Virus record (IMG/VR): IMGVR_UViG_2706794691_000014
Length of the DNA stretch: 5,712 nucleotides
Origin: a virus
Taxonomy: Duplodnaviria > Heunggongvirae > Uroviricota > Caudoviricetes
Strand: one strand, 5' to 3'
Shown here one piece after another: positions 1 through 5,712 of the stretch. The notes under the pieces are model-generated. The model was not told the origin of the DNA, did not search any database, and worked only from the letters and a program-made list of their open reading frames with translations. Both the position numbers and the translations under genes were made by a program. Position 1 is the stretch's first letter. The number at the start of each line of letters is the position of its first letter.

Positions 1-76
1 ATCAAGAACATAACGAAACATAATTCCCCATTATACGCGCGTATAATGGGGAATTATGTTTCGTTATGTTCTTGAT
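1..76. other. telRL: Protelomerase target site / hairpin-telomere palindrome (telRL-like, N15 family). Perfect 76-bp palindrome centred between positions 38 and 39.
   Basis: Checked by hand: positions 1-38 are the exact reverse complement of 39-76. The central 22 bp (28-49, CCATTATACGCGCGTATAATGG) matches the N15 telO core as I recall it, with an alternating CGCGCG centre. The palindrome starts at window position 1, so any further extension cannot be seen. Confidence 0.8.
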
Positions 77-77
77 T

Positions 78-210
78 AGTGTTCTTATTTAGTGTAATAT
101 TCTCATTTTGTGTACTGCTTTATTTAACATTTAGCTTTAATTCTTTATTTGTGTTCTTTATTATGTTTGCATCATTACTTAGTTTTTGTGTTCTTTATTT
201 GTGTTCTTGT
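78..210. repeat. AT-rich spacer carrying iterated short repeats: an 18-bp direct repeat TTCTTTATTTGTGTTCTT at 141-158 and 191-208, plus related GTGTTCTT(T)ATTT copies at about 80-95 and 188-200.
   Basis: Direct reading of the sequence. Repeated motifs lie between the telomere palindrome and the sopA promoter. Function unknown: possibly accessory protelomerase sites (tos-like) or other protein-binding sites. Confidence 0.5.
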
Positions 211-394
211 ATTGGTAAGGTTGGGAGAACTAATAGAGAAAACGTATCTCATTGATGATTCTTATCATGTTTCCCTAGTTTTACATGATTTCCTTTCTTC
301 AAAAAATATAATAAATATCAATTACTTATGATTATGTTGTTGTTCGTTTTATGCATTTCGGGAGGGGAACAAAAGATGATTTAGCTTAAAAATT

Positions 395-496
395 CTCCTT
401 TGCGTTTTTCTTTTTGCTTTGCCTTTTTCATGCAAATTTGCTAGAAATAAGCAAAGATTTAATTATTAAGCAAAGTTACAAGCTGGAGATGACAGT
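395..496 (+). promoter_or_regulatory. sopA promoter/operator region with CTTTGC hexamer repeats (SopA autoregulatory operator) and ribosome-binding site.
   Basis: CTTTGC at 398-403 and 417-422; its reverse complement GCAAAG at 451-456 and 470-475; variants TTTTGC at 412-417 and ATTTGC at 436-441. GGAG at 484-487 lies 9 nt upstream of the ATG at 497. In F plasmid, SopA binds CTTTGC repeats overlapping the sop promoter (established knowledge). Exact -35/-10 elements not assigned. Confidence 0.6.
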
Positions 497-1663
497 ATGT
501 CTTTGAAAAAGCTATTGCAAGATTGTGTTACGAGAGGTCAAGAAATGACCCAAGCAATTGCTATCGCTCAATTCGGTGATGATAGTCCTGAAGCTCGGCG
601 TATCACCCGCCGATGGGGTATTACTGAAGTAGCAGATTTAATTGGTGTAACTCCTCAAGCAATTAGAGATGCTGAGAAGAGCGGGCGTTTACCTGCACCT
701 GACTTTGAAATGAGAGGAAGAATTGAACGTCGTGCTGGTTATACCATAGATCAAATCAACAGTATGCGAGCAGTTTTTGGCAACCCAAACCAACGACCAC
801 AAGATAAAAACCCTGTTGTTCTTGCCGTTATGTCACACAAAGGCGGCGTTTATAAAACATCGTCTGCGGTACATCAAGCTCAATGGTTAGCATTACAAGG
901 TCATCGTGTTCTTTTGGTTGAAGGTAACGATCCTCAAGGTACAGCCTCTATGTATCACGGTTATGTTCCTGATTTACATATCCATGCCGAGGATACTTTA
1001 CTGCCATTTTACTTAGGAGAACGCGATAACGCTGAATATGCTATAAAGCCAACATGTTGGCCTGGGCTAGACATTATCCCTAGCTGCCTAGCTTTACATC
1101 GTATAGAAACAGATCTCATGCAATATCATGCTCAGGGTAAATTGCCTCATCCTCCACACCTTATGCTGCGCGCAGCTATTGAATCAGTTTGGGATAACTA
1201 CGATGTTATCGTTATAGATAGTGCTCCGAACCTCGGTACAGGAACCATTAACGTTGTTTGTGCCGCTGACGTTATTGTTGTTGCTACACCTGCAGAATTA
1301 TTTGATTACGCTTCTGTTCTACAGTTTTTCACAATGCTTCTCGATCTATTGGAAAGCGTTGACCTAGGTGGATTTGAGCCAACCGTTCGCTTACTTCTGA
1401 CTAAATATAGTCTCACTACAGGGAATCAATCACGATGGATGGAAGAACAAATAAGAAATACATGGGGATCAATGGTATTACGTCAGGTTGTACGCGTTAC
1501 CGATGAAGTAGGTAAAGGCCAGATAAAAATGAGAACAGTATTTGAACAAGCAGCAAACCAACGTTCAACATTGAATGCATGGAGAAATGCTGTTTCTATA
1601 TGGGACCCTGTTTGCAGAGAAATTTTTGATGATCTAATAAAACCTCGCTGGGAGAACGAATAA
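497..1663 (+). CDS. sopA: Partition ATPase SopA (type Ia ParA family) with an N-terminal HTH DNA-binding domain and a deviant Walker A box.
   Basis: 388-aa ORF. Deviant Walker A KGGVYKTS at residues 115-122 (nt 839-862). Long stretches match F plasmid SopA as I recall it (EMTxAIAIAQFxDDSPEARxITRRW; LLVEGNDPQGTASMYHGxVPDLHIHAEDTLLPFYLGE; KPTCWPGLDIIPSCLALHRIET; YDVIVIDSAPNLGxGTINVVCAADV; GKGQIxMRTVFEQA; KPRWE). Good RBS. Stop codon overlaps the sopB start. Confidence 0.95.
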   Translation: MSLKKLLQDCVTRGQEMTQAIAIAQFGDDSPEARRITRRWGITEVADLIGVTPQAIRDAEKSGRLPAPDFEMRGRIERRAGYTIDQINSMRAVFGNPNQRPQDKNPVVLAVMSHKGGVYKTSSAVHQAQWLALQGHRVLLVEGNDPQGTASMYHGYVPDLHIHAEDTLLPFYLGERDNAEYAIKPTCWPGLDIIPSCLALHRIETDLMQYHAQGKLPHPPHLMLRAAIESVWDNYDVIVIDSAPNLGTGTINVVCAADVIVVATPAELFDYASVLQFFTMLLDLLESVDLGGFEPTVRLLLTKYSLTTGNQSRWMEEQIRNTWGSMVLRQVVRVTDEVGKGQIKMRTVFEQAANQRSTLNAWRNAVSIWDPVCREIFDDLIKPRWENE

Positions 1664-2628
1664 TGAAACAGCGCTCTCTTCTAAAAAATGCTCCAGATAT
1701 TAATCGCATTATGAGTAATAATCATCATGCCCCTGAACATCAGCCCGTATCACCTATGGTTGGTGATTTAAAACGTCAACTGAGTTCATTAACCGGTAAC
1801 AGCATAACTTTGCCAGTATGCGGACGTAATGTTAACTTTAAGTTAGAGACAATTCCCGCAGATAAAGTTGAAATGGCAACAATGGTATGGCTAGGTAATG
1901 AACGCGATCAAGATTTATTAAATGAATCCTCTCTAGCCGATTTAATCCCATCTTTTCTAACGTCTGGACAACAAAATCCAGCTTTCGCCAGAAAAGTATC
2001 TGGAATCGTTGAAGTCGCTGACGGCTCACGTAGAAGAAAAGCAGCGATATTAACAGGATGTGACTATCGCGTCTTAATTGGTGATCTCGACGATGAACAG
2101 ATGCATTGGTTATCCCAAATTGGTAACGATTATAGGCCTATTAGTGCATACGAAAGAGGAAAGAGATACTTACGCAAGCTAAATGACTTTGATGGTAACG
2201 TTAAAGCATTGGCCGAGGCTGAAAATATAGATAGAAATATTATCACTCGCTGTATTAATACAGCTGGTCTACCAAAAGATATATTAGCTATCTTCAATCA
2301 TCCAGGAGAACTGTCAGCTCGTGCTGGAGATTCTTTGTTTAAGATTTACAAAAAAAACATGGCTGCCATGAGCAATGCTGCTCATCATCTTCTGACAATA
2401 AAAAAAAACGGCGAGGATTTAGAAGCTTCACGGATTATACAAATATTATCTGACTCTGTTCTGGTTGGCGACGAGGAAAAAACAAAAGACGAGAAAAAAT
2501 ATGGGGAAGGGATCACGGCTAGATATAAAGGGAATTTTGTAACTATAAAAATTGATAGCCGCAAAATATCTAAAGAAATACTAAGCAAAATTGAGTTGTT
2601 ACTAGAGGAACAATCTACTGATAATTAA
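1663..2628 (+). CDS. sopB: Partition centromere-binding protein SopB (ParB family).
   Basis: 321-aa ORF. ATG at 1663-1665 overlaps the sopA TAA (1661-1663) as TAATG, indicating translational coupling. Matches recalled F SopB motifs (NAITLPVCGRxVxFxLE; WxGNERDQxLL; LIPSFLxTGQQxPAFxRxVSGxxExADGSRRRKAA; DYRVLxGxLDDEQM; LGNDYRPxSAYERGxRY; NIxRxIITRCINTAxLPK; FxHPGELSARxGD). Same order and size as the F/N15 sopAB operon. Confidence 0.93.
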   Translation: MKQRSLLKNAPDINRIMSNNHHAPEHQPVSPMVGDLKRQLSSLTGNSITLPVCGRNVNFKLETIPADKVEMATMVWLGNERDQDLLNESSLADLIPSFLTSGQQNPAFARKVSGIVEVADGSRRRKAAILTGCDYRVLIGDLDDEQMHWLSQIGNDYRPISAYERGKRYLRKLNDFDGNVKALAEAENIDRNIITRCINTAGLPKDILAIFNHPGELSARAGDSLFKIYKKNMAAMSNAAHHLLTIKKNGEDLEASRIIQILSDSVLVGDEEKTKDEKKYGEGITARYKGNFVTIKIDSRKISKEILSKIELLLEEQSTDN

Positions 2629-2632
2629 GAAT

Positions 2633-2655
2633 TATCCCCTGCATTGCAGGGGATA
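2633..2655. terminator. Inverted repeat (10-11 bp arms, ATCCCCTGCA-T-TGCAGGGGAT) between convergent sopB and tfa. Candidate bidirectional intrinsic terminator; alternatively a SopB-binding centromere-like site.
   Basis: Arms 2634-2643 and 2645-2654 are exact reverse complements, with a GC-rich core (CCCCTG/CAGGGG). It sits in the 32-nt gap between the sopB stop (2626-2628) and the tfa stop (2661-2663, minus strand). Flanking U/A-rich tracts on both strands are only moderate. Confidence 0.45.
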
Positions 2656-2660
2656 TTGAT

Positions 2661-3236
2661 TTATGGTTGACTTGGCCACTCGATATCTGGAGATAGTGAT
2701 GTATCAACACGATTCAACAACACCCGATATGTCTTCCATGCGGCCAGTAACGATTTCTCTTCCTCCGTTGCGATCTCAAGATCTACCGCATCCTGAAGCG
2801 GCGCAATATGCTCACTGGCTACCTGCATCAGGCTGTTTTTTGTTTCTTCCGCCTCCCGGATCCGGAATAGTTTTTCTGCTTCTGCATCTTTCACCCAGGC
2901 TGTGCCGTTCCACTTCTGATATTCCCCTTCCGGCGATAACCAGGTAACATTTTCCGGTAACGGACCGAGTTCAGAAATAAATAACGCGTCCCCTGATGCC
3001 ACGTCATAAACTGTTTTACCCCGATGGTCTTCAACAAGATGCCACGATGCATCATCACTGTTGAAAACAGCCACGAAGCCAGCCGGAATATCTGGCGGTG
3101 CAATATCGGTACTGTTTGCTGGCAGACCTGTATGAGGCGGAATGTATGCGTCACCTTCACCAATAAATTCATTAGTTCCGGCCAGCAGATTATAAATTTT
3201 TATGGTCCGTGGTTGTTCACTCATTCTGAATGCCAT
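2661..3236 (-). CDS. tfa: Tail fibre assembly protein (lambda Tfa family chaperone).
   Basis: 191-aa ORF. The N-terminal ~170 residues ([61 protein letters not shown]...) closely match lambda Tfa and E. coli cryptic-prophage Tfa proteins as I recall them. Start ATG (3234-3236, minus strand) overlaps the stf stop as TAATG. Lies immediately downstream of stf, as in lambda. Confidence 0.92.
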
Positions 3237-5712
3237 TATGCAAGCCTCACAATATAGTTAAATGCGATGTTTTTGACGGTGTTTTCCGCGTTACCAGCAG
3301 CGTTAACGGTGATGGTGTGTCCATGTGAACCAATCGCAACGGAGTGCGTATGAGCACCAATACCGACAGTATGCGCGTGTGCACCTGCAGATGCTGCTGT
3401 GCCGGACAGTGAGTGGCTATGATTACCATCTGTACTGGTATTAGCTAACCACCCCGTAGACATACCTACTGAGCCTTGTACACCCCAGGTATTTTGACCT
3501 GAGCTTGTATAACCATATTGATAAGTATCTTTAAAAACACTGGGGTTAAATCGACGGCCATCTCTATGGCTGTGATTACCAGCTGCATTCGTGCTGCCAC
3601 TTAAACTATGGGTATGCGCACCAGTGTTATTCGTGGATTTAGTGCCGTAATCAAACGACGATGTGGTTTTCGTCCCCAAATCCGTACTGGATGCGCTGGC
3701 GCTGTGGGTATGCGATTTAATGCCGTCCTGTTCCTGAGACAATACGGCCCGACCACTGGCAGGTTTGCCCTTAATCGTCCAGCCACGCATATCAGGGATC
3801 ACGCCTGACGGATAAGCCGCTGCAAGTTTCGGGTATGCAGATTTGTCAAAAGCCTGCCCCTGCATCAGGGCATAGCCAGACGGAACGGTATCTGATGGCC
3901 ACGGGATTGGTGCGCCAGGCGGATAAAACTGCTCTGATGGCGTATAGAGTGAATAAACTGTACCGTCCGTTAACCCTTCCGGCTTATTAGCAGAATATGC
4001 TGGTGACGTATGAATCGTCACGCTGGCATTACTGGTATAATCCCATTGAATATTTACACCAGTCGCATAATTTCCGATTGCAACGTAAATATCGTAAGTA
4101 TCACCAGATGTATTAACCCAGGCAAAATTTGTAAACCCTGTCAATGTGCGCTGCCATAAAGCACCAGTAATCCCCTTCGGATTACCATTACCTGCACGTA
4201 AAACAAGTTCAGATATACCTGCCTGTTGAGGTGACCCCACGTTAAATCCAGCGCCACCAATCAACGTAATTGAAACAACAGAACTCGCCTGTGGCATGGT
4301 TACCGTTGCTAATTTGAACCAACCAGCACCACCGCTGAATGACATTGTTGTTGAGTTAAGCGTACCAATATCTTTCGGCGTCAGTGTTATATCCGCTGAA
4401 AGCGCCTTACCATTCACCTTACGGGCAGAAGGTACCCGACCATTCGCATTGTCATTAGCTGCTTTCACTGCTTTCGGTGTCGCAGCAAGCGTTTCAGATG
4501 TGCTGTTGGTTGCACTACTGAGCTGGACAATTCCTTTTTGTGCTGTCGTAGCGTCCTGTGCGGTGTATTTCCCGTTAGCCAGGTCATACGCGGCCTTAAC
4601 GGCTTTTGGCGTTGCCGCCTGTGACTCGGAAGTGCTGTTAGTCGCACTGCTGAGCTGAACTATCCCTTTCTGTGCTGTCGTTGCATCCTGTGCGGTGTAT
4701 TTCCCGTTAGCCAGGTCATACGCGGCCTTAACGGCTTTTGGCGTTGCCGCCTGTGACTCGGAAGTGCTGTTGGTCGCACTGCTGAGCTGTACTATCCCCT
4801 TTTTCGTCGTGCTCGCATCCTCAAGCGCCACGGCGGATGCAATATCCTCTGCCCGTTTTGCTGCTGTCTCGGCGCGCGTTGCCGCGGATTCCGCCGTACT
4901 TTTGCTCNNNNNNNNNNNNNNNNNNNNNNNNNNNNNNNNNNNNNNNNNNNNNNNNNNNNNNNNNNNNNNNNNNNNNNNNNNNNNNNNNNNNNNNNNNNNN
5001 NNNNNNNNNNNNNNNNNNNNNNNNNNNNNNNNNNNNNNNNNNNNNNNNNNNNNNNNNNNNNNNNNNNNNNNNNNNNNNNNNNNNNNNNNNNNNNNNNNNN
5101 NNNNNNNNNNNNNNNNNNNNNNNNNNNNNNNNNNNNNCTCAGAGTCTGCCGCAGCTGAGGCGCTCTGTTCCGCTGCCGTTTCAGAAGACTTAGCATTCGT
5201 CTCGGACGTTTTTGCCGCCTTCACGGAATTTCCTGCCGCCGTTGCCGAGGAGGCTGCACTGCTGGCGCTTGTGGAGGCGTTCGTTTCTGATGATTTTGCC
5301 GCCTCTTTGGAGGCCGCCGCATCTCTGGCTGAAGTGGCGGCTTCTGACGCTTTCGTTGTCGCAGTGGATGCAGAAGTGGCTGCTGATTTTTGTGACGCTG
5401 CAGCATTCGTTTCTGACGTTTTCGCCGCACCGGCACTGGTGGCCGCCGCGCTTTTTGAGGACTCTGCAGCGGCAGCACTTTTTGATGCTTCAGTGGCCTT
5501 TGTTGATGCCGTTCCTGCGCTGGAAGACGCCTCCTGAGCCGAAGTCGCGGCCTGTCCGGCTGACGTGCTGGCTGCACGCGCTGAGCCTGCAGCATCAGTC
5601 GCATGGGTTGCCGCCTCACGGGCAGATGTGCCGGCATCACTGGCTGACTTCTTCGCGGCTGCCGTGTTCTGTGCCACCGCGGACGCGTTACGCGCCACCT
5701 CTTCCACCATCA
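3236..5712 (-). CDS. stf: Side tail fibre protein (lambda Stf-like), 5'-partial: the true start lies beyond the window end. Interrupted by a 230-nt N run at 4908-5137.
   Basis: Open frame runs to the window edge. The ATG at 5708-5710 corresponds to the internal [13 protein letters not shown] segment of lambda Stf (about residue 118 as I recall), so the N-terminus is missing. Ala/Ser/Thr-rich N-terminal region; three copies of the conserved [15 protein letters not shown]...AATPKAVK fibre motif; C-terminal HxH-rich region ending [31 protein letters not shown], which matches the lambda Stf C-terminus. Central domain differs from lambda (mosaic). Confidence 0.9.
4555..4818. repeat. Near-perfect tandem duplication of a 132-bp unit (4555-4686 and 4687-4818) inside stf, encoding two 44-aa copies of the [14 protein letters not shown] fibre repeat. 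A third, more divergent copy lies at about 4430-4554.
   Basis: Direct comparison: the two units are identical apart from a handful of substitutions (for example GTTAGTCG vs GTTGGTCG, and the last ~25 nt of each unit). Period 132 nt is in frame (44 codons). Confidence 0.85.
4908..5137. other. Run of 230 N: assembly/scaffold gap or masked sequence inside the stf coding region.
   Basis: Contiguous N characters from 4908 to 5137, flanked on both sides by Ala/Ser/Thr-rich low-complexity coding sequence on the minus strand. Confidence 0.99.

Follow-up and report, generated by a model that had tools for sequence, protein, structure and literature searches.

A 76-bp terminal palindrome in an N15-like phage sequence as the probable read-through of a hairpin telomere

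The stretch of viral DNA analysed here (hereafter the window, 5,712 nt) begins at its very first base with a perfect palindrome of 76 bp. What does a palindrome at the extreme end of a phage sequence represent? A preliminary description of this DNA, made from its letters, offered two answers. The palindrome could be the result of sequencing through the loop of a hairpin telomere at the end of a linear plasmid prophage, or it could be an intact protelomerase target whose cognate enzyme recognizes a longer symmetric site than that of phage N15. In N15, the target, telRL, is 56 bp long and consists of the telO core and the L3 and R3 boxes, with degenerate repeats flanking it over ~310 bp (PMC12624138). 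The protelomerase TelN cuts telRL with a stagger and reseals it into two hairpin telomeres (PMC10612081), replication regenerates palindromic telRR and telLL junctions that TelN resolves (PMC12624138), and TelN stays on the ends and guards them against SbcCD (PMC10612081, PMC12624138).

Very probably, a covalently closed hairpin telomere has its tip between window positions 38 and 39 and forms the sop-proximal end (telR) of a linear plasmid prophage of Escherichia, N15-like and ~47 kb in size. The type of telomere is already known: it is N15-type and belongs to a catalogued group of Escherichia/Shigella N15-like phage-plasmids.

The palindrome and the genes beside it

We found that the two arms of the palindrome, 1-38 and 39-76, are 100% complementary and have no spacer, as the preliminary description had stated. 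As a single strand, window 1-76 folds into one uninterrupted hairpin with a 36-bp stem (-38.1 kcal/mol; z = -15.9 against shuffles), and the chance expectation for a perfect 38-nt arm is a negligible 4^-38 or so per position. The preliminary description had likened the central 22 bp to the N15 telO core, and they do match it at 22 of 22 positions. The central dyad lies on the cleavage axis, as the cut annotated in N15 (24802/3; repeat_region 24775-24830, NC_001901) falls on the axis of the palindrome, and about this known telomere-resolution site the symmetry is perfect all the way to the sequence edge. Because the left arm is cut off at window position 1, the length of 76 bp is not a biological one. 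A 14-nt match to the outer arm inside sopA (960-973) was discounted, as about five such pairs are estimated to occur by chance in 5.7 kb.

To the right of the palindrome, the window shows the N15 arrangement of tail genes, sopBA and tel site (Table 1). A stem-loop is annotated in N15 in the equivalent place, downstream of parB.

Table 1. Features of the window, with the evidence for each
Feature	Position	Strand	Evidence
Read-through copy (probable); reverse complement of 39-76 and not independent DNA	1..38	.	1-17 only in self-mirrored records; 38 nt = (77-1)/2
Dyad symmetry of native telRL in the lineage, 42 bp	18..59	.	CP088810.1 ends rejoined, and junctions of CP056845.1, L021 and L036
telO core, 22 bp (CCATTATACGCGCGTATAATGG), equal to N15	28..49	.	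Exact core at 61 further loci
Telomere half-site, sop-proximal (telR); probable real prophage terminus	39..76	+	Same sop-side flank in natural telN-sop junctions L002, L050, L021 and L036
Outer-box position of the half-site, reads TTTCGTTAT	60..68	+	Alignment; N15, telN side and some sisters have GTGCTGAT(A)
TGTTCTT, five direct copies (67, 80, 152, 189, 202), non-coding, telomere to sopA	67..208	+	Repeat count
sopA (ParA-type partition ATPase)	497..1663	+	93% identical to N15 gp28; Pfam AAA_31, CbiA
sopB/parB (centromere-binding protein)	1663..2628	+	Pfam SoPB_HTH 8.5e-25; ParB/RepB/Spo0J in relatives
GC-rich stem-loop between convergent parB and tfa, terminator-like on both strands	2633..2655	.	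10-bp stem, 6 GC pairs
Tail fibre assembly protein (lambda Tfa-like)	2661..3236	-	Pfam Caudo_TAP 4.8e-44
Side tail fibre gene, runs off the window	3236..5710	-	Pfam Phage_fiber_2 x3, Collar; ORF list

The window itself contains no protelomerase gene. The preliminary description had named the lack of such a gene anywhere on the replicon as grounds for giving up the telomere, and here the relatives are informative. Those that are 99.9-100% identical over window 1-3300 or more encode a protelomerase of 631-635 aa, either beside the other telomere or beside the joined site. This protein is 77% identical to N15 TelN over its full length and carries the Pfam domains TelK_N, TelK_muzzle, ResT-TelK_cat and TelK_stirrup. 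Together with a SopA that is 93% identical to that of N15, this identifies an N15-type replicon, and the earlier reading of the element as a linear phage-plasmid stands.

Mirrored records of the same lineage

One of the relatives, CP088810.1, is 100% identical to the window over positions 1-3300 and was deposited as a circular record of 81,175 bp. The genes of this record read J-lom-stf-tfa-parB-sopA up to the axis and sopA-parB-tfa-stf-lom-J after it, and the inverted duplication at the axis has 0 mismatches over 8,038 bp per arm; gapped alignment extends it to ~16.8 kb. The record is mirrored a second time about a point between two inverted telomere-resolvase genes, with the two axes 46,967 bp apart, which is one N15-sized unit. 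The record can thus be written as the reverse complement of the first 17.4 kb, followed by the unit, followed by the reverse complement of the last 16.8 kb. An end of the mirror at ~14.8 kb, suggested by ungapped extension, proved to be an indel, and by gapped alignment the mirrors reach the ends of the record. The duplicated arms have 2 and 0 mismatches, yet gaps open in them 36 and 44 times, a pattern that resembles long-read consensus noise rather than divergence. The preliminary description had also expected a telN-like gene just left of the window, which contradicts its own read-through reading, and this expectation failed: the mirrored records carry a second, inverted sopA in that place. 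In CP088810.1, telN is found at the opposite telomere, 46,967 bp away, and it adjoins the site only in the circularised or phage form.

To see how other plasmid records are built at this site, we searched PLSDB with two junction queries, a 600-nt mirrored sop-to-sop junction (RR, coverage at least 80%) and a telN-to-sop junction (RL). The RR junction was found in nine records (CP088810.1, NZ_CP126957.1, NZ_CP104505.1, NZ_CP014491.1, CP088562.1, NZ_LT906558.1, CP088558.1, CP088738.1 and NZ_CP019258.1), the sizes of which are 81,175, 68,426, 50,720, 62,572, 75,538, 61,544, 11,214, 77,165 and 75,007 bp; none of the nine falls at 45-49 kb. The RL junction was found in eight records, all of 45,247-48,807 bp, with zero overlap between the two sets, and these RL records match the mirrored query just to position 321, that is, 300+21. 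At least nine "complete" plasmid records of 11-81 kb in PLSDB are self-inverted assemblies of the ~47-kb linear element, with inflated sizes and duplicated gene sets. Two recent surveys of telomere phages and of N15-like phage-plasmids do not mention mirrored assemblies.

The same pattern appears beyond PLSDB. The exact 388-aa SopA is indexed in 6,510 blocks of a public assembly collection, and the contigs that carry it are mostly 2-10 kb long, so sequenced samples contain this N15-like lineage very often. Among the 10 longest contigs with this SopA, eight are mirrored and have perfect arms of 9.5 kb or more; several of these eight measure 93-96 kb, or twice the unit. The remaining two carry a TelK-type protelomerase on the left and match the window from position 18 only. 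Scans with the 22-bp core yielded 61 further loci. Where no contig edge limits the symmetry, the perfect arms of these loci are 11-29 nt long (11 in N15), with the exception of two long mirrors, both degraded, that measure 143 and 328 nt. In 31 cases the symmetry extends to the edge of the contig, with arms between 11 and 6,832 nt long; one contig of 13,664 nt is palindromic throughout. Both sop-to-sop (RR) and telN-to-telN (LL) mirrors occur among the core loci. Klebsiella-type sites in these scans share the core and have different inner and outer arms, and the GTDB species representatives gave only a single core match, which is unrelated.

We found that in mirrored loci each SNP is present on both arms, as in L048 (TTACCC on one arm, GGGTAA on the other), L053 (CACAACG and CGTTGTG) and L020. 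At natural junctions such as L050 (TTTCCC and GGGGAA) and L035, the arms vary independently. The sharing of SNPs by both arms of a mirror indicates that these arms are the same DNA read twice. Taken with the mirrored relatives, the division of records into RR and RL sets and the assembly simulation described below, it bears out the hairpin read-through that the preliminary description had given as one of its two options.

A plausible course of events can be drawn from the N15 system. In the phage form, or in a circularised genome, telRL would sit between sopA and telN. The protelomerase would make staggered cuts about the dyad axis and reseal each strand onto its complement, which would give two hairpin ends, and after replication the ends would briefly exist as the perfect palindromes telRR and telLL until the enzyme resolved them again. 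As the strands would be continuous at the tip, reads could pass from one strand into the other, and an assembler would then emit the terminus followed by its own reverse complement. By homology, bases 39-76 would be the hairpin stem, the point between 38 and 39 the turnaround, and bases 1-38 a second pass of the same DNA, in which case the true sequence of the replicon begins at window position 39. We infer the hairpin closure from this homology and from assembly behaviour, namely the self-mirrored assemblies at both axes, one unit apart.

Hairpin replicons of Borrelia offer a precedent. Assemblies of these chromosomes and plasmids carry inverse duplications at the termini, 68 bp to 18 kb long, for which trimming at the inversion point is the standard remedy (bioRxiv 10.1101/2025.07.18.665644). 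As here, the contig runs past the tip into its own reverse complement for a length that is technical (bioRxiv 10.1101/2025.07.18.665644). The two cases differ in the organism and in the telomere resolvase, which is ResT in Borrelia, and in the present lineage many records have been deposited untrimmed as circular complete plasmids.

An alternative source of mirrored sequence is a real duplex junction, either the telRR of a replicated, unresolved head-to-head intermediate or a stable inverted dimer, so that the reads crossing the axis would come from that molecule. Such a junction would have the same sequence as a read-through hairpin, telRR and telLL are genuine intermediates of N15 replication (PMC12624138), and contigs of 93-96 kb, twice the unit, exist. 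Moreover, one Borrelia study reported no Illumina coverage at hairpin wraparounds (bioRxiv 10.1101/2025.07.18.665644), which would favour duplex junctions as the source of short reads across the axis. However, these junctions are transient substrates of TelN, whereas each prophage molecule has two hairpins. The structure of CP088810.1 also speaks against a dimer: its 81,175 bp are not 2 x 46,967, and it has partial mirrors of 17.4 and 16.8 kb with arms that differ nearly only by indels, a combination more readily explained by read-through with consensus noise than by a defined dimer. We therefore regard a duplex junction as distinctly improbable. In both cases this site is the telomere, and the conclusion about telRL is unchanged.

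A few records of this lineage are unusual in other respects. In NZ_CP025707.1 (14008-16348), the phage-plasmid lies near the start of a 5.2-Mb chromosome record and matches from window position 1, so this copy is mirrored. In CAXHUB010000001.1 (3,768,034-3,789,200 of 3,812,203; locus L050), it occupies part of the last ~45 kb and has a natural telN-to-sop junction. The presence of the phage-plasmid within these two chromosome-sized records may reflect misjoins or integration. At the end of the PhiR46_1 record (L003 1-22; PV340565.1 46269-46290), a full 22-bp telO is labelled "telR site", which means that the deposited linear sequence extends 11 nt beyond the dyad axis.

The joined site and its outer boxes

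The window could also show an intact, uncut telRL in the phage or circular form, served by a protelomerase that needs at least 76 bp of perfect symmetry, with telN immediately to the left. In favour of this are the position of the site, which adjoins sopA as in N15, and a symmetry that is perfect over all of the visible sequence. If it were so, the sequence left of the axis should be the telN-side flank of the lineage, and relatives in which the site is joined reveal what that flank looks like. In the unit-length record CP056845.1 (46,419 bp), the protelomerase gene is left of the site, window 18-59 alone is symmetric, and the left flank reads ...TTGTTCTAAAAATCAGCAC where the window has 1-17; natural junctions show ...AAAATCAGCAC in this place. 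Joining the two ends of CP088810.1 gives a native telRL with symmetry confined to offsets 1-21. Across the lineage, natural telN-sop junctions are symmetric over just 12-27 nt per arm and have other sequence at the position of window 1-17. Unit-length relatives with an adjacent protelomerase gene (45-49 kb) likewise have a telN-side flank that differs from window 1-17. The order sopBA, tel site, telN is that of N15 in the joined forms, which are CP056845.1, L047, L050 and the eight PLSDB RL records.

The telN-side flank past offsets 21-27 is ...TTGTTCT[AG]AA[AG]ATCAGCAC and is never the complement of window 60-76, as judged from junctions L002, L050, L021, L036, L035, L029, L037, L056 and L067 and eight PLSDB records, and the telN-proximal end of CP088810.1 bears the same flank. 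Window 1-17, on the other hand, is the complement of 60-76 and not the telN-side flank, and it was found solely in contigs and records that are mirrored about the same axis. The symmetry of the palindrome halts exactly at the window edge, and TelN is 97-100% identical across elements of the lineage, which argues that there is no special enzyme for a longer site. An intact telRL with a longer symmetric recognition sequence, the second option of the preliminary description, is thus very improbable, and the palindrome should not be taken for a new, longer protelomerase site. That the palindrome is instead a chimera of assembly or library preparation, such as a foldback, with no link to a telomere is almost inconceivable: foldback chimeras do occur in sequencing libraries and the palindrome is at a sequence edge, but its axis coincides exactly with the dyad of N15 telO and the cut there, dozens of independent assemblies from different technologies have their axis at this point too, and CP088810.1 has its second mirror centre one unit length off, at the telN end.

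With the hairpin telomere as the preferred reading, the half-site of the window can be compared with known sites. Escherichia phage N15 has the same 22-bp telO core and dyad axis, the same synteny (sopB-sopA-tel site-telN) and the same enzyme family, and the two share the conserved telN-side outer box ATCAGCAC, lambda-like tail-gene modules and the form of a linear plasmid prophage of ~46-47 kb. They differ at the site itself, as the N15 telRL has mismatches at offsets 12 and 14, in agreement with the earlier remark that it is imperfect outside the core, whereas the native site of the present lineage is perfect over 42 bp (offsets 1-21). On the sop side the outer box is GTGCTGATA in N15 and TTTCGTTAT here, which makes the outer box of the lineage asymmetric, and the subtelomeric flanks and the tail-fibre module differ as well. 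PhiR46_1 (PV340565.1), CP056845.1 and NZ_CP117561.1 belong to the same lineage as the window, with a sop region that is 88-99.7% identical and the same sop-side telomere flank. The record of PhiR46_1 labels the sop-side end, beside ParA, as the telR site; unlike in the window, the sop-side box of this phage is the consensus GTGCTGAT. In unit-length records from E. coli and E. albertii, telN is adjacent when the ends are joined, and the site appears either as a joined telRL, matching the window from 18 only, or as a trimmed linear end. TelK of phiKO2 and Tel of PY54 are likened to the present system by enzyme family and by description, as their palindromic target lies between the genome arms (PMC10612081).

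The outer inverted boxes, L3 and R3 (ATCAGCAC...GTGCTGAT), behave differently on the two sides of the axis. The telN-side box is conserved in all relatives, while on the sop side the window reads TTTCGTTAT. The form GTGCTGAT(A) is found at the sop-side outer box in N15, PhiR46_1, L029 and L037, and also on the telN side. TelN does not co-vary with the sop-side allele: it is 97-100% identical across both alleles, and sister elements carry either. One tentative and rather unlikely interpretation is that the sop-side half-site has lost its outer GTGCTGAT box, so that the native telRL would be asymmetric, telLL would have two consensus boxes and telRR none, and a near-invariant TelN would resolve both. 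If this were true, either resolution in vivo would not require the outer box, or the box would have some other role, for example in protecting the end at one telomere only, and the subtelomeric TGTTCTT repeats might compensate for the lost box.

The motif TGTTCTT has 9 matches in the window where 0.82 are expected, and none of 200 shuffles reached 9. The form TGTTC[TC] occurs beside the site in N15, and on the telN side too, with its absolute orientation unchanged. The copies in the stretch from the telomere to sopA are candidate binding repeats for an accessory protein, comparable in position to the degenerate repeats that flank telRL in N15 (PMC12624138).

Arm length and the right end of the window

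If the palindrome is a read-through, what sets the length of its arms at 38 nt? In a de Bruijn graph, the k-mers past a dyad axis are the reverse complements of k-mers that have already been used. A contig should for this reason stop (k-1)/2 nt beyond the axis. We simulated assembly of the terminal sequence of the window with k = 21 to 141 and found that the contig does end (k-1)/2 nt beyond the axis; at k=77 the overhang is 38 nt and the terminal palindrome exactly 76 bp. The arm of the window would then be that of a de Bruijn contig that halted at k=77. We also examined an independent set of metagenomes, in which 8 of 12 contig-end arms equal (k-1)/2 for a default SPAdes k (16, 27, 27, 38 and four times 63 nt; P ~2e-6 under a uniform null). 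The probable value of k=77 combines a numerical coincidence with a general rule; a cut 38 nt left of the axis, made from a long mirrored record, could equally have produced the same arm.

Two of the contig ends deserve mention. OJJJ01000118.1 (51,798 nt; loci L059 and L069) has palindromes with 63-nt arms at both ends, and is a telomere-to-telomere linear replicon with the (k-1)/2 overhang for k=127. An unrelated metagenome end of the Klebsiella type (L075) has an arm of 38 nt, as in the window. A terminal perfect palindrome of k-1 bp that is centred on a tel core could serve as a simple marker by which to spot hairpin telomeres in assemblies of short reads.

At its right end, the window consists of tail-fibre DNA, and chromosomal prophages with matches to it are present in 4,691 of 5,426 E. 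coli genomes. As this DNA is repeated in prophages and contigs with the exact SopA are mostly 2-10 kb long, the window is most likely the start, and possibly the whole, of a short-read contig that is bounded by the hairpin on the left and by a tail-fibre repeat shared with lambdoid prophages on the right. The segment 2674-3300, which comprises tfa and the 3' region of the tail-fibre gene, is 90-96% identical to lambdoid prophages in that same number of complete E. coli genomes, and this identity makes the segment a likely break point in short-read assembly and also a route for the exchange of tail fibres. A megablast search of PLSDB and the complete E. coli genomes found no record identical to the window over its full length, the best matches diverging in the tail fibre after 3916. 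The divergence of the window from its closest relatives after ~3916 indicates that the tail-fibre module is mosaic.

At window 4908-5137, inside the side tail fibre gene, 230 consecutive N stand where CP088810.1 has ordinary coding sequence, possibly as a result of masking or of a scaffold gap. Window 4440-4835 of the same gene is made up of three tandem repeats of 132 nt (44 aa), which correspond to the three Pfam Phage_fiber_2 matches.
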